Position numbers and translations under genes: made by a program. Under the pieces are notes generated by a model. The model searched no databases and was not told the DNA's origin. It saw only the letters and a program-made list of their open reading frames with translations. This document shows positions 39,059 through 62,535 of a DNA stretch of 64,000 nucleotides, in pieces. The first letter of the stretch is position 1. Each line of letters starts with the position of its first letter. Origin of the DNA: Gemmataceae bacterium (GTDB lineage Bacteria; Planctomycetota; Planctomycetia; Gemmatales; Gemmataceae); NCBI GenBank assembly GCA_028288765.1, contig JAQGHQ010000390.1:3665-67664 (forward strand), written 5' to 3'.

Positions 39059-40576
39059 TTACCCCGCCGGCTTCAGGTCCGAGGTCGCCGGCCCGTGCAT
39101 CAATTTACCCTCGGCGGAGTAACGCGACCCGTGGCACGGGCAGTCCCACGTCTGCTCGCCCGGGTTCCACCGCACGAGACACCCCATGTGCCGGCACACC
39201 GCCGAGAGCGTGTGCGTCTTCCCCCTGTTGTCCTTGTACACGGCCAGCTTCGTGAGCCCACTCCGGACCACCGCCCCGTGCCCCGGCGGGATCTGGTCGG
39301 CCGACTTCACGTCCCCGCCGGTCAGCCAGTCGGCATACTGGGCGGCCAGGTTCAGGTTCTCCTGGAATAGGGTTGCCGCCGCCCCGGGCATCCACCGCGA
39401 TGGGGAATAAAGTCCGGCGAGGGGGTTCGGCCGGTGCTGGACGAGGTCGGCCACCAACCTGGCCCCGAGCGTCCCGTGCGTCATCCCCATCCCGGAGTCA
39501 CCGGTGATGACGTAGACGTTATCCCCGCCCCCCGGGGCCAGCCCGATCAGCCCGAGCCCGTCCGGGGTTTCGAACACCTGCCCGGACCACCGGTACGGGA
39601 TCTTCCCGAGCCCCGGGACCCGCTCCTTCGCCCACGCTTCGAGCCGCCCCCACCGCGCGTCCGTGTCGGCCGCCTGTCCCGTCTTGTGGTCCTCCCCGCC
39701 GACGATCAGGTAGTCGAACGAGGCGTCCGGGCCGCCCGGCTGGAGCCGGACGTAGTGGTACGGGTCTTCCGTGTCCCAGTAGAGGGCGTACGGCAGCGTG
39801 CCCCTGGGGACCTCGGCCGCGAGCGCGTAGGTGAGGTACGCGGCGACCTTGGCGTGGAGCGTCGTCCCGACCGCAAATGGGGCGTTGGTCGCGACCACGA
39901 CGGCCCCGGCCGCGACCACGTTCCGGGCCTTCGTTTCGACCTCGCACGGCGACCCGCCGCGGACCTTCGTGACGAGCGTGTCGGTGTGGATCACCCCGCC
40001 CAGCTTGCGGATCCGCCCGGCGATCTCGGTCAGGTACTTGAGCGGGTGGAACTGCCCCTGGTCGGGGAACCGGAGGGCCGGCCCGGGGGCCCGACGCGGG
40101 AATGGGACCCGGTCCACCTTTTCGAAGGGGAGGCCGAGCCGGCAGAGGGCGTCTTCTTCCTTGGCGAGCGTGTCCGGGCCGTCGGCCCCGGGGAACAGGT
40201 AGCCGTCCACCCGCTTGTAGTCGCAGTCGATCCCCTCGCGCCGGACGATCTCACCGATCAGGTCGACGGCCGCCCGGTGACTGGCCGCCGCGGCCCGTGC
40301 CGCGTCGGCCCCGCGGACCGACTCGACGTGCGCGAACCGGTCGTCGATCACCCACGCCAGGTGGGCGGTGGTGGCCGCGGTCTCGGCCCCGGCGACCGCC
40401 GGCTTAGACTCCAACACGACGACGGATTTCCCCTCCCGGGCCAGCAGGTAAGCGGTGGTCAGGCCGGCGATCCCGCCGCCGACCACGCACACGTCGTAAC
40501 GGCTGTTCCCGGCGAGCGGGGTGGCGGACCGGGTCGGGTCCGGGTACTCCCAGACGGAGGTGGTGCTGTGTGTCAC
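39059..40576 (-). CDS. FAD-dependent oxidoreductase with C-terminal Rieske [2Fe-2S] domain (YhfW-like)
   Basis: GTG start; VVGGGIAGLTTAY, GGEDHKTG, WSGQ; CRHMGC...WDCPCHGSRY. Confidence 0.93.
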   Translation of the reverse strand: MTHSTTSVWEYPDPTRSATPLAGNSRYDVCVVGGGIAGLTTAYLLAREGKSVVVLESKPAVAGAETAATTAHLAWVIDDRFAHVESVRGADAARAAAASHRAAVDLIGEIVRREGIDCDYKRVDGYLFPGADGPDTLAKEEDALCRLGLPFEKVDRVPFPRRAPGPALRFPDQGQFHPLKYLTEIAGRIRKLGGVIHTDTLVTKVRGGSPCEVETKARNVVAAGAVVVATNAPFAVGTTLHAKVAAYLTYALAAEVPRGTLPYALYWDTEDPYHYVRLQPGGPDASFDYLIVGGEDHKTGQAADTDARWGRLEAWAKERVPGLGKIPYRWSGQVFETPDGLGLIGLAPGGGDNVYVITGDSGMGMTHGTLGARLVADLVQHRPNPLAGLYSPSRWMPGAAATLFQENLNLAAQYADWLTGGDVKSADQIPPGHGAVVRSGLTKLAVYKDNRGKTHTLSAVCRHMGCLVRWNPGEQTWDCPCHGSRYSAEGKLMHGPATSDLKPAG

Positions 40577-40638
40577 GTGTGGGTCTCGGTGCGGGGAACG
40601 AAACCGGCCGCCGGGTCGGCCCGGCGGCCGGAATGTGG

Positions 40639-40654
40639 AGCATCTCGTGTGCCG
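40639..40654 (-). promoter_or_regulatory. Putative sigma-54 -24/-12 promoter
   Basis: CGGCACACGAGATGCT (GG-N10-GC), 63 bp upstream of the FAD-Rieske gene. Confidence 0.55.
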
Positions 40655-40694: not shown

Positions 40695-41192
40695 TCACGA
40701 ACCCGAGCCCTTTCGCAAGATCCCACTGTCCCCGCCGCCGTTCCCGTCCGGGGGCAGTTCCACGATCTCCAGCCAGTACCTGCCGAGGGCCTTGATCACC
40801 TCGACCATCCGATCGAAGGTGACGGGCTTGGTGATGTAGCTGGCGGCGGACAGGTCGTAGCTCCGGACCACGTCCTCCTCGGCCTTGCTGGTGGTCATGA
40901 CCACCACCCGGATGCCCCGGAATCGTGGGTCCGCCCGGATCTCCCGGAGGGCCTCCCGGCCGTCCATCCGGGGCATGTTCAGGTCGAGCAGGATGACCCC
41001 CGGCCACGGGCTGGTGGCCGGGTCGGTGTACTTCCCCCGGCGGTGCAGGTAGTCGAGCAGTTCTTCCCCGTCCTCCACGAACCGGAGGTCGTTCGCCAGC
41101 CGGCTCTCGGCGAACGCCTCGGCCGTCAGGGCCCGGTCGTCCGGGTCGTCGTCCGCCATCAGGATCGTGATCGGTTTTCCTTCCTTTGCCAT
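40695..41192 (-). CDS. Single-domain response regulator (Rcp1/CheY-like)
   Basis: ILMADDD, LLDLNMPRMDG, VMTTS, YITKP; start 5 bp after the HK stop. Confidence 0.93.
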   Translation of the reverse strand: MAKEGKPITILMADDDPDDRALTAEAFAESRLANDLRFVEDGEELLDYLHRRGKYTDPATSPWPGVILLDLNMPRMDGREALREIRADPRFRGIRVVVMTTSKAEEDVVRSYDLSAASYITKPVTFDRMVEVIKALGRYWLEIVELPPDGNGGGDSGILRKGSGS

Positions 41193-41196: not shown

Positions 41197-44100
41197 TCAC
41201 CCGGGGTCCGTGGTGTCGTTGGTCGCGCCCGCGGGCGCGACGTGGCGGGCGGGCAGCAGGAGTATGAATTCGGCCCCGCGCCCCGGTTCACTCCGGGCAG
41301 TAATCGTGCCGCCGTGGCGGTCGGCGATTTTCTTGCAGATGGCGAGCCCGACCCCGGTCCCCTCGTACTCGCCCCGCCCGTGCAGCCGCTGGAACACCTG
41401 GAAAATGCGGTCCAGGTATTTCTCGTCGAACCCGATCCCGTTGTCCGCCACCGTCACCCGGCAGACCGGCGACCCGGGCAGCCCGTCGGGCCCGCCGTCG
41501 CCGTCGAACAGCTCGCCCCGTACCCGGATGACGGGCTGCACGTCCGGGCGGGCGAACTTCAACGCATTCCCGATGAGGTTCTGGAACAGCTGCCGCATCT
41601 GGGTCGGGTCCGCGTCGATGACCGGGAGCGGGCCGACCGCCACGTCCGCCCCGGCCCGCTCGATGCGGACGGCGAGGTCGTCGATCACGTCCGCCAGGAC
41701 GGCGGTCAGGTCGGTGCGGGCGAACGGCCGGGCCTGGGTAATCACCCGGCTGAACGTGAGCAGGTCGTCGATCAACTTACTCATCCGGCCGGCGGACGAC
41801 AGCATCCGGTCCAGGTATTCCCGCCCCTGGTCGGGCAGCTGGTCCCGGCACCGGTCCCGGAGGCGGTCGCCGAAGGCCTGGATTTTCCGCAGCGGCTCCT
41901 GCAGGTCGTGGCTGGCGATGTAGGCGAACTGTTCGAGTTCCTGGTTGCTCCGGCGGAGCTCGGCGGTCCGCTCGCGGACCAGATGTTCCAGGGTCTGGGC
42001 CTCCCGCTTCTGGGCGTCAATGTCGGTGTTCGTCCCGACCCATTTGAACACCGCCCCGTCCGCCCCGCGGGCCGGGACCGCCCGGGTCTTGAACCACCGG
42101 TACACCCCGTCCGCCCCGCGGATGCGGAACTCGCTATCGAAGTCGGCCCCGGCCGCCACGGCCTTCGCCCAGTCGGCGGCCAGCCCGTCCCGGTCGTCCG
42201 GGTGGACGGACACGGTCCACCGCGTCCCGAGCTGGTCCGCGGCCGGCACCCCGGTGTACTCGGCCCACTGCCGGCTCAGGTAGTCGCACGCCCCGGCCGG
42301 GGTGCACGTCCAGACCAGCTGGGGGATGGTCTCGGCCAGGGTCCGGAACCGCTCCTCGCTCTCCCGGACGGCGGCGACCGCCCGCTGGTGGCTGATCCAG
42401 TGGGCGATCCCGGACGCCAGGGGGGCGAGGTCGGTGAGCACCGCGTCCGTCAGGGGGTGGCGGGCGAACACCGCCAGGACGCCGACCACCCGGCCCTCGG
42501 CCGACAGCGGGTATCCGGCGAAGGCGACTATCCCCTCCCGCCGGGCCCACCCGGGGTCGCTCACGCCCGGGTCGGTCTGCACGTCGTTGGTCAGGTAGAG
42601 CTGGCGGGTGGCGGCGATCCGGCCGATTTTGAATTCGCCCACCTTCACCCGGGCGTGGGGGCCGTTGAGGTGGGTATACAGCCCGGCACTGGCCTGGAGT
42701 TCCAGCTCCGCCCCCGAGTCGGCGAGTGTCCAGACCCGGGCGAACGCCACGCCCAGATGTCGGACCAGGAGTTCCACGCACTCCTGCAACACCACCCGGA
42801 CCGGCTCCGCGGTGGCGAAGCGGGCGGTGATGTCGGCCCGGAGGGCCGCGAGCCGGACCCGTTCGGCGAGCCCCTCCTCCGCCCTCCGCCGGTCGGTGAT
42901 GTCCCGGAGATAACTGGTGAACGTCACCCGCCCGCCGGTGCGGATCGGGGTGATGGCGACCTCGGCGGGGAACTCGGTCCCGTCCCGGCGGACGGCCGTC
43001 AGTTCGACCCGCCGGTTTAGCACCTGCCCTTCGCCGGTGACCAGGTACTGGGTCAGCCCCCGGCGGTGGTCGGCTCGCATCGCGGGGGGGACGATCAGGG
43101 CGGCCATCTCCCGGCCGAGCACTTCTTCCCGGGCGTACCCGAACGTCTGTTCGGCCGCCGGGTTAAACTCGATCACCCGGCCCTGCTCGTCGATCGTAAC
43201 GACGCAGTCCAGGGCCGTCTCGAACATCGCCGTCTTACGGGCCTCGCTCTCCTTCAGGCCCTCTACGGCTTCCTTCCGGTCGGAGATGTCTATGCACAGG
43301 CCGCTGAACCCGGCGATCTCCCCGCCCTCGGCGAACCGTGGGGTCCCCCGGGCCAGGACCCAGCGGTAGGCCCCGTCGTGGCGGCGGAGGCGGTATTCCA
43401 GCTCGAACGGCCGGCGGCCCTCGAACGCGGCCGTGTACGCCGCCCGGTACGTGTCGCGGTCGTCGGGGTGGACGCACGCCGCCCACTCGTCTCCCGGCTG
43501 GTCCTCCAGCGGCCGGCCGGTGAACTCCAGCCAGGTCCGGTTGAAGTACGTCCGCCCGCGGTCCGCGCCGGACACCCAGATCATCACCGGGACCGAATCG
43601 GCCATGCTCCGGAACCGCCCCTCACTCTCCCGCAGGGCGTGCTCGACCTTCTCCCGGCGGGCGATCTCGGCCTCCAGTTCGGCCTGCCGGCCGCGGGCCT
43701 CGGCCAGCGCCCGTTTGGCCCGGTCGGCGGCGGCCCACTGGGCCCCTCCGAGCAGGGCGCAGGCCAACCCGATGAACACGAACAGGCCGAACCCGACCTG
43801 GTTCGACAGGCCCTCGACCGCCCACTCCCCCCGGGGCTGGACGAACCAGTACCGGGTGGCCACTGCCAGGACCCCCGCGGCAAGGACGGCCGGTCCGAAC
43901 CCGGCCTCCCAGGCGACGAAAATGATCGCGAGCAGGGGGACGACGTACGGGTGGTCGTTCCCCAGGATCGGGTCGAGGAGCCGGCGGACGAGGACCGCCA
44001 GGACGATCGCCAGGACCGCCACCATGTACCCCCGGATCTCCGCCGGCGGCCGGTCGGCGAGCTGCCGCCGGGTTGAGGGGGGATCCGCCGCCCGGCCCGC

Positions 44101-44475
44101 CGGGGCTATCAGTTCGAGGATCTTCGGGACGGCCGGGACGAGGGCCAAGACGGTCACCCAGGAGACCACGGCGGCCACCAGCTTGACCATCCCGGACAGG
44201 TTGTGGAACGGGTGGTAGTAGGTCAGGACGGCGAGGAAGTGGGTGAACCCGCACGCCAGGACGGACGCCGCGAGCAGCACGAACAGCCGCGAGAACGGCA
44301 GATCCTGCCGCCGCCGGACGAAGTACAGGAGGACGAGCGGGATGGACAGGAATGCGAGCCAGATGAACAGATCCGACCCGACGTGCAGCCAGACCAGCCC
44401 GGGTGTCCACTCCCCGCAGTCCTTCTGCGCGACGAACCCCCCCGTGCTGGTCAACCAGCCGAAAAACTCATTCAT
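41197..44475 (-). CDS. Sensor histidine kinase: ETR1-like ethylene-binding-type TM domain, DUF4118-like TM domain, PAS, PAS, GAF, PAS, HisKA, HATPase
   Basis: SDLFIWLAFLSIP..LYF...CGFTH...VK..AVVS; LAVLVR..LDP...LAIIFVAW..GFGPA; FR.MADS.PVMIW..HPDD; ASHDLQEPLRK; QLFQNLIGNALKF; DNGIG; GTGVGLAICKKI. Confidence 0.92.
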   Translation of the reverse strand: MNEFFGWLTSTGGFVAQKDCGEWTPGLVWLHVGSDLFIWLAFLSIPLVLLYFVRRRQDLPFSRLFVLLAASVLACGFTHFLAVLTYYHPFHNLSGMVKLVAAVVSWVTVLALVPAVPKILELIAPAGRAADPPSTRRQLADRPPAEIRGYMVAVLAIVLAVLVRRLLDPILGNDHPYVVPLLAIIFVAWEAGFGPAVLAAGVLAVATRYWFVQPRGEWAVEGLSNQVGFGLFVFIGLACALLGGAQWAAADRAKRALAEARGRQAELEAEIARREKVEHALRESEGRFRSMADSVPVMIWVSGADRGRTYFNRTWLEFTGRPLEDQPGDEWAACVHPDDRDTYRAAYTAAFEGRRPFELEYRLRRHDGAYRWVLARGTPRFAEGGEIAGFSGLCIDISDRKEAVEGLKESEARKTAMFETALDCVVTIDEQGRVIEFNPAAEQTFGYAREEVLGREMAALIVPPAMRADHRRGLTQYLVTGEGQVLNRRVELTAVRRDGTEFPAEVAITPIRTGGRVTFTSYLRDITDRRRAEEGLAERVRLAALRADITARFATAEPVRVVLQECVELLVRHLGVAFARVWTLADSGAELELQASAGLYTHLNGPHARVKVGEFKIGRIAATRQLYLTNDVQTDPGVSDPGWARREGIVAFAGYPLSAEGRVVGVLAVFARHPLTDAVLTDLAPLASGIAHWISHQRAVAAVRESEERFRTLAETIPQLVWTCTPAGACDYLSRQWAEYTGVPAADQLGTRWTVSVHPDDRDGLAADWAKAVAAGADFDSEFRIRGADGVYRWFKTRAVPARGADGAVFKWVGTNTDIDAQKREAQTLEHLVRERTAELRRSNQELEQFAYIASHDLQEPLRKIQAFGDRLRDRCRDQLPDQGREYLDRMLSSAGRMSKLIDDLLTFSRVITQARPFARTDLTAVLADVIDDLAVRIERAGADVAVGPLPVIDADPTQMRQLFQNLIGNALKFARPDVQPVIRVRGELFDGDGGPDGLPGSPVCRVTVADNGIGFDEKYLDRIFQVFQRLHGRGEYEGTGVGLAICKKIADRHGGTITARSEPGRGAEFILLLPARHVAPAGATNDTTDPG

Positions 44476-45436: not shown

Positions 45437-45452
45437 CGCACGCGGCGTGCCA
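45437..45452 (-). promoter_or_regulatory. Putative sigma-54 -24/-12 promoter
   Basis: TGGCACGCCGCGTGCG, 115 bp upstream of the membrane protein start. Confidence 0.6.
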
Positions 45453-45531: not shown

Positions 45532-45820
45532 CTCGCTCCCACGCTCGGCGCTATGCATTACCCACAACGTCACGTCGTGACGGGTATCTTTGGGTTTTTC
45601 CGGCCCTGAAGGGCCGGTTTGCTCGTGGCCCAGGTCTCCAGACCTGTGCTGGTACCCCTTCTGCTCCGAGGCCGGCGTCTTTCTCTCCTCGCCACGGTTC
45701 CCGACCGGGGTGCCTGCACAGGTCTCCAGACCTGTGCCACGGGGAGTCGGTCCCTTCGGACCTGTAAGAACAAGGGGCAGATCGTCCTGGGTCATGCGTA
45801 GCCCAGAGCGTGGGAACGAG
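45532..45820. repeat. Nested composite palindromic element
   Basis: Outer 33-bp IR (45532-45564 / 45788-45820, 5 mismatches) enclosing a gtggc(c/a)caggtctccagacctgtgc doublet (45625-45740) and ggccctgaagggcc (45602-45615). Confidence 0.75.
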
Positions 45821-45883
45821 GAAGAAAACGACTGCGGGGGCCAGATGGCCCCCGCGGTCCGCACCCGCCACCCGGAACGGGTG

Positions 45884-46063: not shown

Positions 46064-46259
46064 GGTTGTTACCTCCGGTTTGTTCTCACGGTCGCGGGCG
46101 GTGGTTGGGGGTTGTTAGCCGCACGGCCGGTCCATCGCCGGCTGGACTCGCCATCCCCCTGGGGAGGACGTCGAGCCCGTGCGCTCCCGATATCCGGGCC
46201 GTATCGAACTGGGACGGCCCGCCACCCGGCAAACTGCCGCCGGGGCCTGATGTCTGAGG

Positions 46260-46275
46260 AGCAATGGCTGTGCCG
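46260..46275 (-). promoter_or_regulatory. Putative sigma-54 -24/-12 promoter
   Basis: CGGCACAGCCATTGCT, 197 bp upstream of DUF1328. Confidence 0.65.
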
Positions 46276-46394
46276 ATGTCGAAAACATCCGGGAACGGGG
46301 TTCCTCAATGGGCAGGAGTCGTCCCATCCCGGCACCCCGCTGCCCGGCGGTGAGAGTCGATGTTCCGTCCCGGCCGTCCGCCGCTCCCTCCAAT

Positions 46395-46410
46395 TGGAAC
46401 GGGGGATGCA
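46395..46410 (+). promoter_or_regulatory. Putative sigma-54 -24/-12 promoter
   Basis: TGGAACGGGGGATGCA, 42 bp upstream of the AsmA-like gene. Confidence 0.55.
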
Positions 46411-46451
46411 TATTACGGCGGGTTGGGTCTCACGGTCGAGGAGGGCGGACC

Positions 46452-52093: not shown

Positions 52094-54307
52094 ATGCGAG
52101 TCTGGCCGGGCCGCCCGTATCCTCTCGGTGCGACGTGGGACGGGGTGGGCGTGAACTTCGCCCTGTTCAGCGAGAACGCGGCGAAGGCCGAACTCTGCCT
52201 GTTCGACCACCCGGACGCGGCCCAGCCGAGCCAGGTCATTCCACTCAAGGAGAGGACCGATCAGGTCTTCCACACCTACCTGCCGGACGTCCTCCCCGGC
52301 CAACTCTACGGGTATCGGGTGTACGGCCCGTACGCGCCGAGCGAGGGCCACCGGTTCAACCACCACAAAGTCCTGTTCGACCCCTACGCGAAGGCCGTCG
52401 GCCGCGAGTCGCGGTGGGACCACGCGATGTTCGGGTACGAGATCGGGCACGCCGACGGGGACCTGTCGTTCGATGTGCGGGACAGCGCGCCATTCGCCCC
52501 GCTCGCGGCGGTCAACGACCCGGCCTTTACCTGGGGCGACGACCGGTCCCCGCGGATCCCGTGGCACGAGACGTTGATCTACGAACTCCACGTGAAGGGG
52601 TTCACGAAGAAGATGCCCGGCGTCCCGGACCGGCTCAGGGGAACCTACGCCGGGGTCGGGTGCGAGACCGCGGTCCGGCACCTGAAGGAGCTGAACGTCA
52701 CCGCGGTCGAGCTCCTCCCGGTCCATTACCGGCTCGACGACCACTACCTCGTGGAAAAAGGGCTGACGAACTACTGGGGGTACAACACCCTCGGGTTCTT
52801 CGCCCCGGACCCCCGGCTCTCGGCCGACCCGAAGAACCCGGCGGCGGCGGTGTGGGAGTTCAAAACGATGGTCCGGACCCTCCACGCGGCCGGGATCGAG
52901 GTCATCCTCGACGTCGTGTACAACCACACCGCCGAGGGGAACCAGAACGGCCCGACGCTCTCGTTCCGGGGGATCGACAACGCCAGCTACTACCACCTCT
53001 CGCCGGAGGACAGGCGCTACTACATGGACTTCACCGGGTGCGGGAACACCCCGAGCCTGCGGCACCCCCGGGTTCTCCAGCTGATCATGGACTCGCTCCG
53101 GTACTGGGTGCTGGAGATGCGGGTGGACGGGTTCCGGTTCGACCTGGCCACGGCCCTCGCCCGGGAGCTGTTCGAGGTGGACAAGCTCAGCACGTTCTTC
53201 GACGTGATCCACCAGGACCCGGTCCTGTCGCAGGTCAAGCTGATCGCCGAGCCGTGGGACGTCGGCCCGGGCGGGTACATGGTCGGGAACTTCCCGGTCG
53301 GGTGGACCGAGTGGAACGGCGAATACCGGGACGCGATCCGGAAGTTCTGGGCCGGGCGGGACGTGCCGGCGGATAAGCTGGCCGCCCGGCTGACCGGGTC
53401 CGGCGACCTGTACGAGCAGACCGGCCGGCGGCCGTACGCGAGCATCAACTTCATCACCTGCCACGACGGGTTCACCCTCCACGACCTGGTGAGCTACGAC
53501 CAAAAGCATAACGAGGCGAACAAGGAGGACAACCGGGACGGGTCGAACGACAACCACTCGTGGAACTGCGGGGCGGAGGGCCCGACCGACGACCCGGCGG
53601 TCAACACCCTCCGGGCCCGGCAGAAGCGGAATATGTTCGCCACCCTCATGCTCTCCCAGGGCGTCCCAATGGTGCTCGGCGGGGACGAACTGGGCCACAC
53701 CCAGAAGGGGAACAACAACACCTACTGCCACGACGACGACCTGACCTGGCTCGACTGGAAACTGACCCCGGACCAGAATGCATTCCTCGGGTTCGTGAGA
53801 CGGGCGACGGCCCTGTGGCGGGACCAGCCGGTGCTCCAGCGGCGGACGTTCTTCGAGGGCCGGCCGATCCGCGGGAGCGGGGTGGCGGACGTGTCGTGGT
53901 TCACACCGGCAGGAGCGGAACTGGCGAACGACGACTGGGAAAAGCCGGCGAAGTGCCTGGGCTGCCGGCTGGCCGGCGACCTGATCGACGAGACGGACAG
54001 CCGGGGCGAGCCGATCGTCGGGGACACGCTCCTGTTCCTCCTGAACGCCCAGGCGGACCCGGTCGACTTCACCCTTCCGGACACGAACCCGGGCCAGCGG
54101 TGGGAGCTCGTGTTCGACACGGCCGACGACGCCCGCCCGCCGATGTCGTTCCCCGGGAAGTATCGGTACCTGCTCCGGGACTGGTCGGTCGCCGTGTTCC
54201 GGACCCGCCGGGACGGCGCGCCCGAGCCGGCTGCGCCCCCGCCCCGGGCGAAGGCGGCCGCCCGGGCGGGTGCCCGTCCCCGGACCCGCCCGCCCCACGC
54301 CCCGTGA
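52094..54307 (+). CDS. glgX: Glycogen debranching enzyme (GH13, GlgX/TreX)
   Basis: PYPLGATWDG.GVNFALFS, IYELHVKG, NYWGYN, DVVYNHTAEG, DGFRFDLA, AEPWD, NFITCHDGFTL.D.VSY. Confidence 0.96.
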   Translation: MRVWPGRPYPLGATWDGVGVNFALFSENAAKAELCLFDHPDAAQPSQVIPLKERTDQVFHTYLPDVLPGQLYGYRVYGPYAPSEGHRFNHHKVLFDPYAKAVGRESRWDHAMFGYEIGHADGDLSFDVRDSAPFAPLAAVNDPAFTWGDDRSPRIPWHETLIYELHVKGFTKKMPGVPDRLRGTYAGVGCETAVRHLKELNVTAVELLPVHYRLDDHYLVEKGLTNYWGYNTLGFFAPDPRLSADPKNPAAAVWEFKTMVRTLHAAGIEVILDVVYNHTAEGNQNGPTLSFRGIDNASYYHLSPEDRRYYMDFTGCGNTPSLRHPRVLQLIMDSLRYWVLEMRVDGFRFDLATALARELFEVDKLSTFFDVIHQDPVLSQVKLIAEPWDVGPGGYMVGNFPVGWTEWNGEYRDAIRKFWAGRDVPADKLAARLTGSGDLYEQTGRRPYASINFITCHDGFTLHDLVSYDQKHNEANKEDNRDGSNDNHSWNCGAEGPTDDPAVNTLRARQKRNMFATLMLSQGVPMVLGGDELGHTQKGNNNTYCHDDDLTWLDWKLTPDQNAFLGFVRRATALWRDQPVLQRRTFFEGRPIRGSGVADVSWFTPAGAELANDDWEKPAKCLGCRLAGDLIDETDSRGEPIVGDTLLFLLNAQADPVDFTLPDTNPGQRWELVFDTADDARPPMSFPGKYRYLLRDWSVAVFRTRRDGAPEPAAPPPRAKAAARAGARPRTRPPHAP

Positions 54308-54398
54308 CCGCACTGACATTCCGCCCGCGGACCGGGCGGCCCACACTGAGAGGCCGCCCGGCCCGCACGCCGGCCCCAACCTTCGCCCCCGGTGCGTC

Positions 54399-57300
54399 AT
54401 GACCGCCGACGAACCGATCCCCGAGCCCTTGTCGGGCACGGCCGGCTTCGACCGCCTCGCCGCCGCCGCGGTCCGGCGGGCGGCCGCCCGCCGCCGCACC
54501 CCCGGGGCCACGTACCGGTTCCAGTTCCACAAGGAGTTCACCCTCCGCCACGCCACCCAGCTCGTCCCGTACCTGCACGCCCTCGGGGTCACCCACATCT
54601 ACGCCTCGCCGATCCTGAAAGCCAGGCCCGGGAGCCACCACGGGTACGACGTGGTGGACCACGGCCGCCTGAACCCCGAGGTGGGCACCGAGGAAGACCT
54701 CGCCGACCTGGCGGCGGCCCTCGCGGCCCGGGAGATGGGGCTGATCCTCGACGCGGTCCCGAACCACATGTGCATCGGGGGCGATAACCCGTGGTGGACG
54801 GACGTCCTGGAACACGGCCCGTCGTCGCCGTACAGCGAGTCGTTCGACATCGCCTGGTTCGACTCCCCCCGGCCGGGGATGACCGGCCGGCTCCTCTACC
54901 CGGTCCTGGGCGACCCGTACGGGACGGTGCTGGAAGGGGGGCAGTTGAAACCGGTATTCGAGCACGGCCAGTTCTCGGTCTGGTACTACGACACCCGGCT
55001 CCCGATCGACCCGCGGACGTATGACCGGATCCTCGCCCCGGCGGCCGGGGAGCTGATGGCCCGGCTCGGGCCGGAAGAACCGGACACGATCGAGCTCCTG
55101 AGCATCCTGAACGCCATCAGCCACCTCCCCCCGCGGATCGAAACGGACCCCGGGCGGGTGGCCCTGGGACGGGTCGAGATCGCGTCCCTCAAGCGGCGCC
55201 TGTCGGACCTGGGCGAGCGGTTCCCGGCGGCGGCCGAGGCGGTCGCGGGCGGGGTCCTGAAGCTCGCCGGGGTCCCGGGCGACCCGGCCAGTTTCGCCCC
55301 GCTCGACGATCTGCTCGAGGCCCAGGCTTACCGCCTGTGCTTCTGGCGGGTGGCGTCGGACGAGATCAACTACCGCCGGTTCTTCGACGTGAACGAACTG
55401 GCCGCGGTCGCGACCGAGCGGGAGGACGTGTTCCGGGCGGTCCACCGGAAGCTCCTCGAGTGGCTGGCCGCCGGCCGGGCGGAGGGCCTTCGGATCGACC
55501 ACCCGGACGGGCTGTACGACCCGAAACAGTACCTCGACCGGCTCCAGGCTCACTACCTGCTCGCCCTGGCGAGGGAGCTGTGGGTGGGGACCCCGGACGA
55601 CTACCCGGGGGTCGACTGGGACCGCGACGAGCCGGCCCTGCTGGAGCGGCTGAACTCCCAGTTGGGCGGGGGGCATGAGCCCCCCGCGGGCGCCGAGACG
55701 GGATCGGACTCCTCGGCCCAGTTCGGGGGGCTCATACCCCCCGCCCGCCGGGGCCTGCCCCTGTACGTCGTCGTGGAAAAAATCCTCGGGGACAACGAGC
55801 CGTTGCCGCCCGACTGGGCGTGCGACGGGACGACCGGGTACGAGTTCCTGACCGCGATCAACAACCTGTTCGTCGACCCGGCGGGCGAGTCCCGGCTGAC
55901 CCGGCTGTACCACGAGTTCACCGGCCTTACCGACCCGTTCCCCCAGGTGGTGTACGAGAGGAAGGGCCAGATCATGGCGTCGTCCCTGGCGAGCGAGCTG
56001 ACCGCCCTCGCCTACCAGCTCGACCGGCTCGCCCGGCTCGACCGGCGGTCCCGGGACTTCACCCTGTACGGGCTCAAGCGGGCGTTGCGGGAGGTGATCG
56101 CCTGCTTCCCGGTGTACCGGTCGTACGTGAACGGCGGGGTCCACGACTCCGACAAGGCGGTGATCGGGCGGGCCGTGTCCCGCGCCCGGCGGCGGAACCC
56201 GATGCTCGGGACGGCGATCTTCGACTTCATCCGCGACACCATTCTCCTGAAGGACCGGCCGTCCGGGCCGGCGTCGGAGGAGTACCGCGCCCTCCAGCGG
56301 CGGTTCGCCGGGAAGTTCCAGCAGCTAACCTCCCCGGTCACCGCCAAGGGGATCGAGGACACCGCGTTCTACGTGTACAACCGGTTCGTCTCGCTCAACG
56401 AGGTGGGCGGGGAGCCGGGCCGGTTCGGGTGGCCGCCGGACCGGGTCCACAGGTTCCTCGCCGACCGGGCGGCGACGTTCCCGGGCGGGCTGTCCCCGCT
56501 CTCGACCCACGACACCAAGCGGAGCGAGGACGGCCGGGCCCGGCTGAACGTGCTGTCGGAGCTGCCCGGGGAGTGGGCCGACCGGGTCGGCCGGTGGGCG
56601 CACCTGAACGGCCGGCACAAGACGGACCTGGAAGACGGGGCGACGGCCCCCGACGCGAACGAGGAATACCTGATTTACCAGACGCTCGTCGGCATCTGGC
56701 CACCGGACCGGAGGCCGGACGGGCTCAAGGACCGCGTCCAGGCGTACGTCAAGAAGGCGCTGTGCGAGGCGAAGGTCCACAGCAGCTGGATCAACCCGGA
56801 CCGCGACTACGAGGCGGCGGTCGCGAAGTTCGTGGACGGGATACTGGACCCGGCCGGGTCGGCGGAGTTCCTGACCGACCTGCAACACTTCGTCGACCGG
56901 GTGGCGGTCTTCGGGCGGGTGAACGCGCTCGCCCAGACCGTCCTCCGCTGCACCGCCCCGGGCGTGCCGGACACCTACCAGGGGACCGAAGCCTGGGACT
57001 TCAGCCTGGTCGACCCGGACAACCGCCGGCCGGTCGACTACGCCGCCCGCGAAGAGTGGCTGCGGGACGTGACCGCCGCGCCGGCCGGCGACGCCCAGAC
57101 CCTCGGCCGGCTGGCCCGGAACCTGGCGGACCCGCGGGCGAAGGTGTTCACCGTGGCCCGGGCGCTGCGGTGCCGGCGCGAGCACCCGGCGCTGTTCGAG
57201 GAAGGGGCGTATACCCCCGTGACCGCCGAAGGGGAGAAGGCGGACCACGTGTTCGGGTTCCTCCGCCACCGGACCGGGGAGGCCGCGCTGGTCCTCGTCC

Positions 57301-57521
57301 CGCGCCTGCCGGTCGGGCTCGTCCCGGCCGCGGACCGCCCGCCGGTCGGCCGGGAGACCTGGGGTGACACGGCCGTTCGCCTGCCGGACGAGTTCCGCGG
57401 CGGCCGGTGGGCGAACGTGTTCACCGGCGCGGCGGTCACCGCCACCGGCGGCGTGCTCCCGGTCGCCGACGTCCTCGGGGTGTTCCCGGTCGCGGTGCTG
57501 ATCCGGCGGCGGGGTGATTAG
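54399..57521 (+). CDS. treY: Malto-oligosyltrehalose synthase
   Basis: P.ATYRFQF, YL.ALGVTHIYASPI, HGYDVVD, D.VPNHM, EINYRRFFDVN, GLRIDHPDGL.DP, VEKIL, STHDTKRSED.RAR, PGVPDTYQG.E. Confidence 0.96.
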   Translation: MTADEPIPEPLSGTAGFDRLAAAAVRRAAARRRTPGATYRFQFHKEFTLRHATQLVPYLHALGVTHIYASPILKARPGSHHGYDVVDHGRLNPEVGTEEDLADLAAALAAREMGLILDAVPNHMCIGGDNPWWTDVLEHGPSSPYSESFDIAWFDSPRPGMTGRLLYPVLGDPYGTVLEGGQLKPVFEHGQFSVWYYDTRLPIDPRTYDRILAPAAGELMARLGPEEPDTIELLSILNAISHLPPRIETDPGRVALGRVEIASLKRRLSDLGERFPAAAEAVAGGVLKLAGVPGDPASFAPLDDLLEAQAYRLCFWRVASDEINYRRFFDVNELAAVATEREDVFRAVHRKLLEWLAAGRAEGLRIDHPDGLYDPKQYLDRLQAHYLLALARELWVGTPDDYPGVDWDRDEPALLERLNSQLGGGHEPPAGAETGSDSSAQFGGLIPPARRGLPLYVVVEKILGDNEPLPPDWACDGTTGYEFLTAINNLFVDPAGESRLTRLYHEFTGLTDPFPQVVYERKGQIMASSLASELTALAYQLDRLARLDRRSRDFTLYGLKRALREVIACFPVYRSYVNGGVHDSDKAVIGRAVSRARRRNPMLGTAIFDFIRDTILLKDRPSGPASEEYRALQRRFAGKFQQLTSPVTAKGIEDTAFYVYNRFVSLNEVGGEPGRFGWPPDRVHRFLADRAATFPGGLSPLSTHDTKRSEDGRARLNVLSELPGEWADRVGRWAHLNGRHKTDLEDGATAPDANEEYLIYQTLVGIWPPDRRPDGLKDRVQAYVKKALCEAKVHSSWINPDRDYEAAVAKFVDGILDPAGSAEFLTDLQHFVDRVAVFGRVNALAQTVLRCTAPGVPDTYQGTEAWDFSLVDPDNRRPVDYAAREEWLRDVTAAPAGDAQTLGRLARNLADPRAKVFTVARALRCRREHPALFEEGAYTPVTAEGEKADHVFGFLRHRTGEAALVLVPRLPVGLVPAADRPPVGRETWGDTAVRLPDEFRGGRWANVFTGAAVTATGGVLPVADVLGVFPVAVLIRRRGD
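55664..55746. repeat. REP-like inverted doublet in frame within treY
   Basis: gggcggggggcatgagccccccg (55664-55686) and cggggggctcataccccccgccc (55724-55746); one mismatch; each arm is itself a hairpin. Confidence 0.75.
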
Positions 57522-57527
57522 GCAAGC

Positions 57528-57675
57528 CCCGGGTGGCATGTCCACGGCTTTGCGTGGACATGGGGAGCCGGTGGACGGGGGGCTGATCCCGACCACAGAT
57601 TCGGTCGAGCCGGCGGTCATCCGGGATCATCGAAGCCCCCCATGTCCACGCAAAGCCGTGGACATGCCACCCGGG
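57528..57675. repeat. REP-like doublet, perfect 38-bp inverted repeat between treY and treZ
   Basis: cccgggtggcatgtccacggctttgcgtggacatgggg and its exact reverse complement at 57638-57675; each has an internal 10-bp stem. Confidence 0.9.
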
Positions 57676-57729
57676 CCAGAACCTCGCGGGCCGCATATTC
57701 TCCTGTCCAACGTCAAACCTGGATTCGCG

Positions 57730-59616
57730 ATGTCCGAGCCCGCACCACTGCCGCCCGCCTTCGCCCGCCGCCTCCCGGTCGGGGCAGACATCGTCCCCGG
57801 TCGCGGAGTTCACTTCCGGGTCTGGGCGCCGATCCGCAAGACGGTCGAGGTGGTGGTCGAAGGCGGGCCGACGGTCCCGCTCGCGGCCGAGCCCGGCGGG
57901 TACTTTTCCGGGCTGGTCGAAGGGATCGGCGCCGGCGCACGGTACAAGTTCCGGCTCGACGGCGGCGACTACCTGTTCCCGGACCTCGCGTCCCGGTTCC
58001 AGCCGGCCGGGCCACACGGGCCGTCCCAGGTCGTCGACCCGACGACGTTCCGGTGGACCGACCACGCCTGGGGTGGGGTGCCGGAGACGGGGCAGGTGCT
58101 CTACGAGATGCACATCGGCACGTTCACCCCGGCCGGGACGTGGGCGGCCGCGGCCGCCCGGCTCCCGGACCTCGTCGACCTCGGGATCACCGCCCTCGAG
58201 GTGATGCCGGCCGCCGAGTTCCCGGGGAGGTTCGGGTGGGGCTACGACGGGGTCCAGCTCTTCGCCCCGACCCGCCTCTACGGCGCCCCGGACGACATGC
58301 GGGCCTTCGTGGACCGCGCCCACGCGCTCGGGCTCGGGGTGATCCTCGACGTGGTCTACAACCACTTCGGCCCGGACGGGAACTACGTCGGCGCGTTCGC
58401 CCCGCAGTTCCACAGCAAGACCCACAAGACCGAGTGGGGCGAGCCGATCAACTTCGACGGCCCGGGCAGCGGCCCGGTGCGCGAGTTCTTCGTGGCGAAC
58501 GCGGGCTACTGGGTCGACGAGTTCCACGTCGACGGGCTCCGGCTCGACGCCGTCCACGCGATCGTCGACGATTCCCCCGAGCCCATCGTGACCGCGGTCG
58601 CCCGCCGGGTGCGGGAAGCGGCGAAGGGCCGGCTGACTTATGTGATGGCCGAGAATGAGGCGCAGGACTCGAACCTGGTGCGGCCCGTGGACGAGGGCGG
58701 GAGCGGGCTGAATGCCGTGTGGAACGACGACCTGCACCACGCCGCCCGGGTCGCCCTGACCGGGAAGAACGAGGGGTACTTCTCCGATTACCTCGGCGCC
58801 CCGCAGGAGTTCGTCAGCGCGGCGAAGTGGGGCTTCCTATACCAGGGGCAGCAGTACCGGTGGCACCACCGCCGCCGGGGCAAGCCGGCGTTCGACATCC
58901 CCCGGCACCGGTTCGTCACGTTCATCGAGAACCACGACCAGATCGCCAACTCCGGCCGCGGGCATCGCGTCCACCAGCTCGCCAGCCCGGCGAAGTGCCG
59001 GGCGGTCACCGCGTACTTGCTGCTCGGCCCGGGCACCCCGATGCTCTTCCAGGGCCAGGAATACGCCAGCACCAAGCCGTTCCTCTACTTCGCCGACCAC
59101 GCCCCGGACCTGGCAAAGCTCGTCCACGAGGGGCGGAAGAAGGAACTGGCGCGGTTCCGGAGCCAGTCGGCCCCGGACGTGCTGGCCGTCCTGGTCGGGG
59201 ACCCGGCCGACCCGGCGACGTTCGGGCGGTGCAAGCTGGACCCCGCCGAGCGGGCGGCGCGCGGGGAGTGGCTCGCGCTGCACAAGGACCTCATCGCCCT
59301 GCGGAAATCGGACCCCGCATTCCGGCCGGGGCTCGTCGTCGACGGGGCGGTCCTCGACGCCACCGCGTTCGTGCTTCGGTACTTCGTCCCGGACGAGCAC
59401 GACCGGCTGCTCGTAGTGAACCTGGGCCGCGACCTCCGGCTGGAGCCGGCCCCGGAGCCGTTACTCGCCCCGCCCGAGAGCGGATTGGTCTGGACCCCGA
59501 TCTGGTCGAGCGAGAACCCCAAATACGGCGGGCTCGGGACCGCCCCGCTCGACACCGACCAGAACTGGGAGGTCCCCGGCGAGGCCGCGGTGTTGCTCGC
59601 CCCGGCCCCGCGCTGA
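57730..59616 (+). CDS. treZ: Malto-oligosyltrehalose trehalohydrolase
   Basis: FRVWAP, PDLASRFQP.GPHGPS, YEMHIGTFT, WGYDGV, DVVYNHFGPDGN, DGLRLDAVH, WNDD.HH, ENHDQIAN, PMLFQGQE. Confidence 0.95.
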   Translation: MSEPAPLPPAFARRLPVGADIVPGRGVHFRVWAPIRKTVEVVVEGGPTVPLAAEPGGYFSGLVEGIGAGARYKFRLDGGDYLFPDLASRFQPAGPHGPSQVVDPTTFRWTDHAWGGVPETGQVLYEMHIGTFTPAGTWAAAAARLPDLVDLGITALEVMPAAEFPGRFGWGYDGVQLFAPTRLYGAPDDMRAFVDRAHALGLGVILDVVYNHFGPDGNYVGAFAPQFHSKTHKTEWGEPINFDGPGSGPVREFFVANAGYWVDEFHVDGLRLDAVHAIVDDSPEPIVTAVARRVREAAKGRLTYVMAENEAQDSNLVRPVDEGGSGLNAVWNDDLHHAARVALTGKNEGYFSDYLGAPQEFVSAAKWGFLYQGQQYRWHHRRRGKPAFDIPRHRFVTFIENHDQIANSGRGHRVHQLASPAKCRAVTAYLLLGPGTPMLFQGQEYASTKPFLYFADHAPDLAKLVHEGRKKELARFRSQSAPDVLAVLVGDPADPATFGRCKLDPAERAARGEWLALHKDLIALRKSDPAFRPGLVVDGAVLDATAFVLRYFVPDEHDRLLVVNLGRDLRLEPAPEPLLAPPESGLVWTPIWSSENPKYGGLGTAPLDTDQNWEVPGEAAVLLAPAPR

Positions 59617-59813: not shown

Positions 59814-61157
59814 GTGTTCCGGCTCAAGCCCGGCCCGGCCCCGACCCGGTGGGACCTCGACGCCGAAGCGGTCGCGGTCAAAATCCGCTGGTTCGGGCTC
59901 GTGGTCGGCTACCTGTACGCCAACTTCGGCCCGGCCGCCGACCCGACCCCGCTCAACGTCATCCTCGCGCTCGGGTTCGCGTTCACCGCCCTCGACACCT
60001 ACCTGTCGTGGCGGGGCCGGGTGGTCCTCGGCGCGTTCCCGCTCGTCGTGTCGTGCATGGAAGCCCTGTTCATCGGCCTCCTGTGCTACACCGACGGGGG
60101 GCTCGAGAGCCCGTTCCGATACTACTACATCCTCTCGCTCGTCTGCGCCGGCATCCGGTACTCCCCGGCCGTCACCGGCGTGACCTTCGGGCTCGATTGC
60201 CTGAGCTACGTCGTCCTGTTCCTCACCCTCCCGGCCGACCGCCGGGGCGGGGCCTCGCTCGTCCTCGGCCTGATCGTCCTCGGCTGGGTGACCTGGGCGG
60301 CGGTCGCCCTGGCCCGGCTCCTCCGGCGGGTCGGCGACCAGCTCTCCGGGCTGAACCACCAGCTCCGCGAGAACCAGGCTCTCCTTGAGGAACGGATGGC
60401 CGAACGGACCCGGGAGCTGCAGGAGTCGCAGGCCCAGGTGCTCCACCAGGAGAAGATGGCCGCGTTCGGCCTGCTCGCCGCGGGGATCGCGCACGAGGTC
60501 GGGAACCCGCTCACCTCGATCAGCACGCTCGTCCAGATGCTCGAACGCCGCGACCCGGACGACTACACCCGCGAACGGCTCGGGCTGGTCACCACCCAGC
60601 TCACCCGCATCCAGGCGATCCTCCGGGAGCTCGTCACCTTCAGCCGGCCGGCGAGCGACACCCGGGTCCGGGTCTGCCTGAAGACGATCATCGACGAGGC
60701 GCTCGGGATCGCGAAGTACTACAAGGGGGTGAAGGGCCGCGAGGTCCGGGCCGACATCCCCGCCGGCCTGCCCCCCCTCGTCGGCGTCCGCGACCAGCTC
60801 GTCCAGGTGTTCTTCAACCTCGTGCTAAACGCGATCGACGCGACCGGGAAGGGCGGGAAGGTGGTGATTTCCGCCCGCGCGACCGGCGGGACCCTGGTCG
60901 CGACCGTGGCGGACGACGGGCACGGGATCGACCCGAAGCACCGGGAGCGGCTGTTCCGCCCGTACTTCACCACCAAGCGGCACGGCACCGGGCTGGGCCT
61001 CTTCGTCACCCAGAAACTGGTCCACGCCCACGGCGGGACGGTCGGGTGCGAGTCCCACCCGGGGGAAGGCACCACGTTCCGGCTGGTGTTCCCACTCGCC
61101 CCGCCCCCCGCCGCGCCGGCGGACCTGACCGGTGGAAGTCTCTCCCATGCCACCTAA
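59814..61157 (+). CDS. Membrane sensor histidine kinase (NtrB-like)
   Basis: About 5-6 TM helices; EKMAAFGLLAAGIAHEVGNPL; QVFFNLVLNA.DA; D.G.G; YFTTK..GTGLGL. Confidence 0.93.
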   Translation: MFRLKPGPAPTRWDLDAEAVAVKIRWFGLVVGYLYANFGPAADPTPLNVILALGFAFTALDTYLSWRGRVVLGAFPLVVSCMEALFIGLLCYTDGGLESPFRYYYILSLVCAGIRYSPAVTGVTFGLDCLSYVVLFLTLPADRRGGASLVLGLIVLGWVTWAAVALARLLRRVGDQLSGLNHQLRENQALLEERMAERTRELQESQAQVLHQEKMAAFGLLAAGIAHEVGNPLTSISTLVQMLERRDPDDYTRERLGLVTTQLTRIQAILRELVTFSRPASDTRVRVCLKTIIDEALGIAKYYKGVKGREVRADIPAGLPPLVGVRDQLVQVFFNLVLNAIDATGKGGKVVISARATGGTLVATVADDGHGIDPKHRERLFRPYFTTKRHGTGLGLFVTQKLVHAHGGTVGCESHPGEGTTFRLVFPLAPPPAAPADLTGGSLSHAT

Positions 61158-62535
61158 ACCCGTTGCCCCGGCCTCCGTCCTCGTCGTGGACGACGAGCCG
61201 ATCATCCGCGCGAACCTGGCCGAGTTCCTCCAGCAGGAGGGGTTCGCCGTCCAGACCGCCGCGACCGGCGAGGCGGCGGTCGCCCTCGTGGCCAAACACA
61301 AGTTCGACGCGATCCTGTGCGACGTGAACCTCCCGGGCCTCGACGGGATCGAGGTGCTGGAGCGGGTGGCGACGCTCAGCCCGGAGACGTTCGTCCTGCT
61401 GATCACCGCGTACGCGACGGTCGAGTCGGCGGTCGACGCGCTTCACAAGGGGGCGCAAGACTACCTGATGAAGCCGATCCTCCTCCGCGAGGTCGAGCGG
61501 AAGCTCCGCCGGCTGCTGCAGCAGCGCGCCCTGTTCCACGAGAACCAGTGGCTCCGGCGGGAGCTGAGCCGGGCGGCGGACCCCGGGGAGATGGTGGTCG
61601 GCCGCGGCCCGGCGATGAAGCAGATCTACGCGATGGCCCGGAAGGTCGCGCCGACCCCGTCCACGGTGCTGATCACGGGCGAGAGCGGGACCGGCAAGGA
61701 ACTCCTGGCCCGGGCGGTCCACGAGTTCTCCCAGGCGGCGAAACCGACCGCCGGCCGGTTCGTGGCGGTGAACTGCGCCGCCATCCCGCACGACCTGATC
61801 GAGAACCAGCTGTTCGGGCACCGCAAGGGGGCGTTCACCGGGGCCGACAGCGACGTCCCCGGGGTGTTCGCCCACGCGGCGGCCGGGACCGTCTTCCTCG
61901 ACGAGATCGGCGAGCTCCCGCCGGCCACGCAGGCCAAACTGCTGCGGGTAATCGAGCAGAAGGAAGTGATGCCGGTCGGGGCGAGCGAGCCGGTCCGGGT
62001 CGAGGCGCGGATCGTGGCGGCGACGAACAAGGACCTGGCCAAGGAGGCCGAGGCCGGGCGGTTCCGGGAGGACCTGTTCTACCGGCTGAACGTGGTGGTG
62101 CTGAAACTGCCCCCGCTCCGCGACCGCCGCGAGGACATCCCGGAGCTGGTGGACCATCTACTCGCGAAACACGCCCGCGCGATGGGGAAGAAGGTGAGCG
62201 GGGTGACGCACGAGGCGATGCAGTTGCTCCAGGTGTGCCCCTGGAAAGGAAACATCCGGGAGCTGGACAACGCGCTCCAGCGGGCGGTGATCCTGGGTGA
62301 CGGCCCGCTCGTGACCCCGGCCGACCTGCCCCCGGACCTCTCCCCCCGGGCCGACGACCCGTCGGCGGTGGACGAGCTCGGGAAGGCGGTGGAGCGGTTC
62401 GAGAAACTGCACATCGAGCGCATTCTGCGGCAGACGGCGGATAAGCGCGAGGCCGCCCGCCGGCTCGACATCGGGCTGAGCTCGCTCTACCGCAAGATCG
62501 AGCAGTACGGGATCGCGGGCGAGCGGCCGGTGTGA
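61147..62535 (+). CDS. Sigma-54-dependent response regulator (NtrC family enhancer-binding protein)
   Basis: LVVDDE, CDVNLPG.DG, GESGTGKE, NCAAI, GAFTGA, FLDEIG, FREDLFYRLNV, WKGNIREL, Fis-type HTH; overlaps the HK stop. Confidence 0.96.
   Translation: MPPKPVAPASVLVVDDEPIIRANLAEFLQQEGFAVQTAATGEAAVALVAKHKFDAILCDVNLPGLDGIEVLERVATLSPETFVLLITAYATVESAVDALHKGAQDYLMKPILLREVERKLRRLLQQRALFHENQWLRRELSRAADPGEMVVGRGPAMKQIYAMARKVAPTPSTVLITGESGTGKELLARAVHEFSQAAKPTAGRFVAVNCAAIPHDLIENQLFGHRKGAFTGADSDVPGVFAHAAAGTVFLDEIGELPPATQAKLLRVIEQKEVMPVGASEPVRVEARIVAATNKDLAKEAEAGRFREDLFYRLNVVVLKLPPLRDRREDIPELVDHLLAKHARAMGKKVSGVTHEAMQLLQVCPWKGNIRELDNALQRAVILGDGPLVTPADLPPDLSPRADDPSAVDELGKAVERFEKLHIERILRQTADKREAARRLDIGLSSLYRKIEQYGIAGERPV

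Follow-up and report, generated by a model that had tools for sequence, protein, structure and literature searches.

The region between positions 39059 and 62535 of a 64,000-nucleotide (nt) stretch of Gemmataceae DNA (contig JAQGHQ010000390.1; the whole stretch is referred to as the window) carries genes for an FAD-dependent oxidoreductase with a Rieske domain (FAD-Rieske), a 234-aa membrane protein, a DUF1328 membrane protein, an AsmA/TamB-like protein, a Wza-like polysaccharide export protein, and GlgX, TreY, and TreZ, as well as two sensor kinases (HK1 and HK2), a single-domain response regulator, and an NtrC-type enhancer-binding protein (EBP) (Table 1). A preliminary description of this DNA reported five oriented GG-N10-GC motifs of the sigma-54 type, here named m1 to m5, and interpreted them as marking a candidate desiccation/general-stress regulon with its own NtrC-type activator. 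Based on a comparison with related loci, we suggest that the five motifs are probably genuine sigma-54 promoters of a gene set that is kept through the Gemmataceae and into the Isosphaeraceae. The promoters and the gene set of the earlier interpretation thereby stand; the dedicated activator does not.

Results

Five sigma-54-type motifs precede corrected gene starts

Because the window has a G+C content of 70.3%, the coordinates of the longest open reading frames (ORFs) are misleading, and four of the five motifs would wrongly fall within genes if these coordinates were used. Gene starts were re-derived from the G+C content of third codon positions (GC3), Shine-Dalgarno sites, and the lengths of orthologues; the start of the FAD-Rieske gene was set by orthologue length (502-504 aa). 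With these starts, each motif is intergenic and aimed at its own gene, 42-197 nt before the corrected start, in agreement with the upstream placement and orientation that had been reported, and all five 16-mers match exactly at their reported positions. The GG at -24/-25 and the GC at -12/-13 are exactly 10 nt apart in all five window sites and in 48 of the 48 orthologous sites that we collected. The sigma-54 -24/-12 consensus of Barrios et al. 1999 is reportedly TGGCACG-N4-TTGCW; m3 matches 10 of its 11 specified positions, m1, m2, and m4 match nine each, and m5 matches seven. Taken alone, m5 is a weak candidate, and only its conservation rescues it as a predicted promoter.

Counts within the window do not lift the motifs beyond chance. 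The loose pattern of the preliminary description, YGGHAY-N7-GC, has 51 matches in the window against 36.6 expected, TGGCAC-N5-TTGCW with at most two mismatches has 17 against 12, a pattern in which GG and GC are required and nine or more of the 11 positions match has 10 against 6.4, and a position weight matrix built from relatives only has 12 at 11 bits against 5.2. This matrix ranks m1 first in the window, m5 15th, and m2 17th. A tighter pattern has 11 window matches, and, among the five claimed sites, all but m2, which differs from this pattern in its final base, are matched; these four are the only matches that are both intergenic and correctly oriented. In the left 39 kb, where a non-exhaustive reading of intergenic regions had turned up no comparable motifs, all matches are intragenic or lie in the arms of hairpin repeats. 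Additional candidates were rejected because they lie between or inside convergent genes (39031(-) and 38715(-)), in hairpin-repeat arms (12023(+) and 13494(+)), inside the gene at 13541-15799 (13695(-) and 13986(+)), in the tail of the Wza-like gene, which is not conserved (51541(+)), or in a DUF1501 gene that lies at the edge of the window (63923(+)).

The motifs are conserved at orthologous genes

We gathered relatives via protein homologues and their contigs, with a fetched span of ±10 kb around the chosen proteins, resulting in a sample of ~30 related loci from Gemmataceae and Isosphaeraceae (designated by L and a number). An initial genome scan with the AsmA-like protein gave no matches; AsmA-like orthologues form a graded series of 42-70% identity, labelled Gemmataceae or Urbifossiella, and seven contigs with such orthologues were taken for comparison. 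The GlgX protein led to 80 loci in species-representative genomes, of which ~17 belong to Gemmataceae/Isosphaeraceae and the remainder are outgroups.

The preliminary description had proposed a check for conservation upstream of orthologues, and there GG-N10-GC is found at orthologous positions across both families, 36-146 nt before the respective start codons. The AsmA-like gene is preceded by YGG[AT]ACG-N4-[AG]TGCW in 8/8 loci; the Wza-like gene, which had been grouped with it as one unit bearing a motif, has no motif of its own upstream in any of seven loci. Ahead of the lipoprotein/DUF1328 unit described below, CGGCACACYCGTTGCW is found in 7/7 loci (6/6 by the strict pattern, the seventh being L001, which is without a downstream gene call); loci in which it is seen are L001-L004, L006, and L007. 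The membrane-protein gene has CGGCACG-N4-[AG]TGCA in 10/13 loci by the strict pattern, to which near-variants in the window (m2) and L007 are added; this motif is found in L002, L003, L004, L007, L011-L014, L018, L020, L029, and L091, including Gemmata, Frigoriglobus, and Isosphaera loci in which the gene is divergent from glgX. The FAD-Rieske gene, as an orthologue or a paralogue, has the motif in 5/5 loci (the window, L006, L012, L020, and L091), and glgX is preceded by YGGYAY-N4-TTCGCW in 14 of 17 Gemmatales/Isosphaerales loci. One-base near-misses of the strict pattern are the window m2, the membrane-protein motif of L007, and the glgX motif of L009.

The background, determined on ~500 kb of related DNA, is 0.022 matches per 200-nt oriented window. 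A comparison of motif frequency with background, as had been proposed, has two outcomes: counts in the window alone are near expectation, whereas conservation at orthologues is well above the background of relatives. glgX loci from outside Gemmatales/Isosphaerales, high-GC actinobacteria included, served as a control, and just 6 of 55 have any match (Fisher p = 6e-8); the upstream regions of HK1 in four loci have no sigma-54 motif.

We also aligned the divergent region between the AsmA-like and lipoprotein genes with MAFFT, without reference to the motifs. The mean column identity is 46%, and the invariant columns comprise the two motifs, the start codon, and a few scattered single columns; the -24 columns of m3 (TGCC on the + strand) are invariant, as are the GG, ACG, and TGC columns of m4. 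Motif positions that were not required by the search contain 1.5-2.0 bits, compared with 0.2-0.7 bits in the 40-nt flanks. The consensus of the 48 sites, YGGCAC[GA]-N4-[TA]TGC[AT], corresponds to the classical TGGCACG-N4-TTGCW, with A at position 5 in 48/48 sites and C at position 6 in 44/48, and each class has its own -12 element (ATGCA for asmA, TTGCW for the lipoprotein, GTGCA for the membrane protein, and TTCGCW for glgX). It is the diverged flanks together with the controls that carry the argument from conservation, and on this comparative basis the five motifs are very probably sigma-54 -24/-12 promoters.

The promoter-bearing units are repeatedly re-clustered

The same units are found together in several arrangements. 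The order FAD-Rieske <- membrane protein <-> glgX is present in Gemmata (including a 9.2-Mb genome), membrane protein <-> glgX together with FAD-Rieske also in Frigoriglobus and Isosphaera, Wza-like -> glgX-treY-treZ in Urbifossiella-like metagenome-assembled genomes, and in L016 AsmA-Wza adjoins glgX-treY. Repeated re-clustering of independently promoted units is expected of a co-regulated set, and because the same genes are adjacent in several orders, they would most likely respond to one signal via one or a few EBPs. In Gemmata-type loci (L012 9900-9958, L020 9887-9946, L029 7088-7153, and L091 9865-9928), the motif of the membrane-protein gene and that of glgX stand back to back, their -24 boxes being separated by only ~28-40 nt, which is an uncommon arrangement for promoters that depend on enhancers.

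Two further motifs were observed beside other genes, i.e. CGGCACCCGGATTGCA in L088 at 18559-18574 (-), 59 nt ahead of a 77-aa ORF that has two HSP20 genes next to it, and CGGCACGCGCGGTGCA in L091 at 13823-13838 (-), 54 nt before a Gfo/Idh/MocA oxidoreductase gene. These genes may be additional members of the set.

Genes of the set and their surroundings

Table 1. Features of the region 39059-62535, with positions in the window
Feature	Position	Strand	Details
FAD-dependent oxidoreductase, C-terminal Rieske, 505 aa, GTG start	39059-40576	-	Pfam DAO E=2e-49, Rieske E=1e-13
12-bp all-GC hairpin then TTTCGTT	40604-40631	-	Terminator scan; begins ~8 nt after m1
m1, sigma-54-type -24/-12 motif CGGCACACGAGATGCT	40639-40654	-	63 nt before FAD-Rieske GTG at 40576
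Single-domain response regulator, receiver only	40695-41192	-	Pfam/NCBIfam receiver; ATG 4 nt after HK1 stop
Sensor kinase HK1: ETR1_N, DUF4118, three PAS, GAF, HisKA, HATPase	41197-44475	-	Pfam
Possible sixth sigma-54-type motif CGGCACGATTACTGCC	41296-41311	-	~100 nt before response-regulator ATG, within HK1 3' end
234-aa membrane protein, four predicted transmembrane helices	44618-45322	-	'PhnA-like' in UniRef
m2, sigma-54-type motif TGGCACGCCGCGTGCG	45437-45452	-	115 nt before membrane-protein ATG at 45322
Terminator-like hairpin after DUF1328	45834-45855	-	Separates DUF1328 from membrane-protein unit
DUF1328 (YtjA-like) membrane protein, 59 aa	45884-46063	-	NCBIfam PRK13682 family E=3e-17; Pfam DUF1328 in orthologues
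m3, sigma-54-type motif CGGCACAGCCATTGCT	46260-46275	-	197 nt before DUF1328 ATG at 46063
m4, sigma-54-type motif TGGAACGGGGGATGCA	46395-46410	+	42 nt before AsmA-like ATG at 46452
AsmA/TamB-like large envelope protein, 1386 aa	46452-50612	+	Weak Pfam AsmA/DUF748; homologues named AsmA-like or TamB
Wza-like polysaccharide export protein, Poly_export and SLBB	50533-51738	+	Pfam, NCBIfam
m5, sigma-54-type motif CGGTATAGAATTCGCA, unusual TTCGC -12 element	51970-51985	+	109 nt before glgX ATG at 52094
glgX-treY-treZ	52094-59616	+	Glycogen debranching enzyme, malto-oligosyltrehalose synthase, trehalohydrolase
Sensor kinase HK2, membrane-embedded N-terminus, HisKA, HATPase, AtoS/ZraS-like core	59814-61157	+	Pfam, NCBIfam
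NtrC-type EBP: REC, AAA+ with GAFTGA, HTH_8	61147-62535	+	Pfam Response_reg, Sigma54_activat E=4e-65, AAA_lid_14

The identity of the trehalose pathway enzymes was borne out by NCBIfam scores of 996 bits for GlgX (TIGR02100, cut-off 641), 942 for TreY (TIGR02401, cut-off 499), and 599 for TreZ (TIGR02402, cut-off 539). Formation of trehalose from glycogen by TreY/TreZ and GlgX is established, and the same inference has been made for Geobacter (PMC2700814).

The core of the AsmA module, found in five of the seven AsmA loci, is membrane protein <- DUF1328 <- 135-aa lipoprotein, with the AsmA-like gene running in the opposite direction away from it. In five relatives, the gene for this conserved lipoprotein (133-135 aa, lipobox AACN) separates DUF1328 from the AsmA-like gene; on comparison with L002 9391-9798, we found no remnant of it at 46064-46451 of the window. 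The window has thus lost the lipoprotein gene, DUF1328 is left with a 197-nt leader, and m3 is, by ancestry, the promoter of a lipoprotein-DUF1328 operon. Long hairpins at the place equivalent to that of the hairpin after DUF1328 are present in L002, L003, L006, and L007. The spacer between DUF1328 and the membrane-protein gene is ~560 nt in the window vs 100-230 nt in relatives; it holds two copies of the palindrome CACAGGTCTCCAGACCTGTGC (45632-45645 and 45720-45733) and, between them and antisense to DUF1328, a sigma-54-like match, TGGTACCCCTTCTGCT, at 45650(+). The true start of the Wza-like gene is probably near 50740, and the gene is probably co-transcribed with the AsmA-like gene.

The 234-aa membrane protein has 357 homologues, chiefly in Gemmataceae, and searches of Pfam and NCBIfam and a PDB fold search with an AlphaFold model (pLDDT 70) gave no match. 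At the FAD-Rieske gene, the hairpin at 40604-40631 probably either terminates transcription of the response-regulator gene upstream or forms a stem-loop at the 5' end of the sigma-54 transcript; because it lies ~8 nt past m1, this transcript would start at or inside the hairpin. A hairpin is present at the matching relative place in L006, and in Gemmata loci it lies before the promoter. An orthologue of the response regulator, 84% identical, adjoins FAD-Rieske in L006, and the possible sixth site has a counterpart there, CGGCACGCCGGGAGCA, 75 nt before the orthologous gene; it is seen in these two loci only. The N-terminal domain of HK1 is of the type known from plant ethylene receptors (Pfam ETR1_N, E = 4e-34), and its orthologues lie beside the membrane-protein/DUF1328/AsmA module in L002, L003, and L007.

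Several other features were noted. AT-richer hairpin repeats built on CACAAAGGCACGAAG / CTTCGTGCC follow DUF1501 genes, and related TTCGAAGCACGAA hairpins come after DUF1328 in relatives. Such repeats were noted in the window (~12005-12120 and ~13485-13600), L002 (~9060-9180), and L007 (~9060-9165); they look like a family of intergenic repeats resembling repetitive extragenic palindromes (REP) and give rise to false near-matches to the sigma-54 consensus (AGGCACGAAG...). An 83-aa ORF (MAKQVFYRQCRLVKRT...) at 38711-38962 (+), in a 580-nt gap between convergent genes, has no family match; it is plausible, yet neither the ORF-length nor the GC3 screen called it. What looked like a pseudogene with in-frame stops at 13.8-15.8 kb proved to result from the antisense frame having been read, and no Rfam family was found in 38400-62600.

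The HK2-EBP pair and a search for enhancers

As had been reported, an intact GAFTGA-type EBP and its kinase close the island, with GAFTGA at residue 233 and both genes intact. The EBP has more than 100 orthologues at 70-85% identity and is thus more conserved than the AsmA-like protein. Its pairing with HK2 is also seen in L088 and L089, and EBP orthologues of 75-85% identity in L088, L089, and L090 have unrelated neighbours, different in each. The neighbourhood is not kept with the set, and the proposal that the set has its own NtrC-type activator finds no support here: in 0 of 24 related loci, some with ~80% GlgX identity, is there an EBP or HK2 homologue within 10 kb of the AsmA/glgX modules. 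In the window, no sigma-54 motif precedes HK2-EBP. The spacer between treZ and HK2 is 197 nt and has no recognisable terminator, so that read-through from the glgX promoter is possible. Altogether, the HK2-EBP pair may be one candidate activator of the set, although we doubt it.

A search for 9-mers common to the five window promoters, enrichment of 8-mers over 43 promoter regions, and alignments gave, apart from the matches that follow, only GC-rich words that are explained by shared orthologous blocks and composition. Within the window, a 13-nt match, TCCGGGCCGTATC, occurs at 46193-46206 (~200 nt before m4 and inside the DUF1328 leader) and at 51843-51855 (~129 nt before m5); CCGATATCC, near TCCGGGCCGTATC, is likewise common to the upstream regions of m4 and m5, and a TGCGCA-N6-TGCGCA repeat lies ~80 nt before m5. 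No recurrence of TCCGGGCCGTATC, CCGATATCC, or the TGCGCA repeat was found in relatives.

Discussion

Our working hypothesis is that the five motifs are sigma-54 promoters of a conserved set composed of glgX-treY-treZ, the AsmA/TamB-like gene, usually followed by the gene for the Wza-like exporter, lipoprotein-DUF1328, the 234-aa membrane protein, and FAD-Rieske, which the response regulator possibly joins. From the general behaviour of sigma-54, sigma-54 RNA polymerase would sit on each GG-N10-GC as a closed complex, and transcription would start ~12 nt past the GC only upon ATP hydrolysis by an AAA+ EBP. The gene content, namely the trehalose pathway, DUF1328, and the AsmA/TamB-like and Wza-like envelope proteins, suggests a role in water or osmotic stress, or in a resting state during which the envelope would be remodelled. 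Gemmataceae are not known to form spores. The machinery is represented in the clade by the intact GAFTGA EBP of the window and its more than 100 conserved orthologues, and Rhodopirellula baltica has an rpoN gene, RB6491, which is translated (PMC2754498).

Several observations count against this hypothesis. Over the 43 promoter regions, k-mers, dyads, and alignments gave no shared upstream activator sequence, a search that a short or degenerate site would escape, and the ~28-40 nt between the -24 boxes of the back-to-back pairs imply that any enhancer must sit outside the pair. The strong hairpin straight after m1 could terminate the transcript of m1 itself, and m5 and its orthologues have C in place of T at -14, giving an uncommon -12 element. 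Because the loci are mutually related, binomial p-values overstate their independence. We found no rpoN within the 64-kb window. No RNA run contains the window, and those that match Gemmata sp. IIL30 yielded contigs that were too thinly spread for usable 5' ends. Finally, the stress function is a prediction from annotation, and two members of the set are without known function.

Different explanations of the motifs were weighed against these data. Chance matches in a 70% G+C genome would agree with the window-only counts, which are near the shuffled expectation; given that the motifs keep their position in up to 15 loci of a class where the background rate is 2%, that the flanks have diverged, and that the negative controls are clean, we regard this explanation as effectively refuted by the comparative data. 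An element bound by a factor other than sigma-54, i.e. a transcription factor or an extracytoplasmic function (ECF) sigma factor, appears very improbable. ECF sigma factors are numerous in planctomycetes, the GGAAC in m4 and its orthologues resembles an ECF -35 element, and an ECF sigma fragment adjoins the AsmA gene in L001. However, none of the eight AsmA loci shows a conserved -10-like CGT 16-17 nt downstream of GGAAC, which is why we rejected the -35 reading of m4, and the invariant GG and TGC lie at exactly the sigma-54 spacing, with GG-N10-GC in all five classes.

The two other explanations accept the promoters and differ in how they would be controlled. In one, the HK2-EBP pair (59814-62535) binds enhancers upstream of all five promoters, which would constitute one desiccation/general-stress regulon. 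The EBP is intact from its receiver through its AAA+ domain to HTH_8, the pair lies directly after treZ within reach of possible read-through, and EBP orthologues occur in the same families as the promoters. Because the adjacency is unique to this genome, with no EBP or HK2 near the module in the 24 related loci, no motif before HK2-EBP, no shared dyad before the five promoters, and many EBPs to choose from in Gemmataceae (at least 8000 candidates, nearly all below E = 1e-60), we consider this arrangement unlikely. Alternatively, the promoters are real and there is no single regulon, each unit having a separate EBP and signal, and the clustering reflects function. That each gene class has its own spacer and -12 flavour and that a common upstream activator sequence was not detected would fit separate regulation; class-specific spacers are nevertheless expected from orthology alone, and repeated re-assembly of the units, often as divergent promoter pairs 30-120 nt apart, is explained most simply by shared control. 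Separate regulation is, in our view, rather unlikely.

Like classical sigma-54 promoters (reviewed in PMC7057263 and PMC4987338), the sites of the set have GG and GC 10 nt apart, CAC after GG, TGC[AT] at -12, and a position 40-200 nt before gene starts, and a GAFTGA EBP is encoded in the window genome. Unlike them, the set prefers C over T at the first position, the glgX class has TTCGC, no enhancer was found, and some pairs are back to back ~30 nt apart. HK2 and the EBP best match AtoS/ZraS and AtoC/NtrC/ZraR (E = 3e-61 and 3e-126, respectively), with which they share their architecture; they score far under every equivalog cut-off, and are therefore no orthologues of a characterised system, and the N-terminal sensor of HK2 is membrane-embedded and unassigned.

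The gene content has partial parallels elsewhere. Francke et al. 2011 argued that sigma-54 controls the bacterial exterior (PMC3162934), and the predicted promoters of the set before AsmA/TamB-like, Wza-like, lipoprotein, and small membrane-protein envelope genes agree with that thesis. The main text of that paper mentions no planctomycete, trehalose, or glycogen, and the set differs from what it describes by adding a cytoplasmic compatible-solute pathway, GlgX-TreY-TreZ, and FAD-Rieske. The nearest thematic parallel is sporulation in Myxococcus xanthus, which requires sigma-54 and Nla EBPs as well as a Wza-like exporter (exo) and involves induction of treY, treS, and otsAB along with trehalose accumulation (PMC2875238); the parallel is one of theme only, and a sigma-54 promoter at treY is not reported there. 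The gene content of the set overlaps with that of RpoS, SigB, and EcfG regulons, which depend on sigma availability or partner switching, in contrast to the closed complex and ATP-driven activator of sigma-54. Trehalose synthesis in enterobacteria is RpoS-dependent (otsBA). The DUF1328 protein YtjA is among the small proteins controlled by sigma-S in Salmonella (PMC5437024).

Our literature searches turned up neither a description of sigma-54 promoters at treYZ/glgX nor one of a Gemmataceae sigma-54 regulon, and the conserved sigma-54 gene set is previously undescribed. Gene regulation in planctomycetes is barely studied, and no master stress regulator is known there. The set comprises about six transcription units with predicted sigma-54 promoters that are kept across at least two orders of the phylum, ties the formation of trehalose from glycogen to envelope proteins and two uncharacterised membrane proteins, and gives a regulatory context to three function-unassigned families, i.e. 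the 234-aa membrane protein, the 135-aa lipoprotein, and the FAD-Rieske enzyme. More speculatively, and with considerable doubt on our part, sigma-54 and one dedicated EBP could be the master switch of a desiccation, osmotic, or resting programme in Gemmatales and Isosphaerales, in which glycogen is converted to trehalose and the envelope is remodelled. If true, this switch would occupy the role that is held by RpoS, SigB, or EcfG in other phyla, and the unusually compact back-to-back promoter pairs would imply a non-classical enhancer geometry. The set is open to testing in cultured, genetically tractable relatives.

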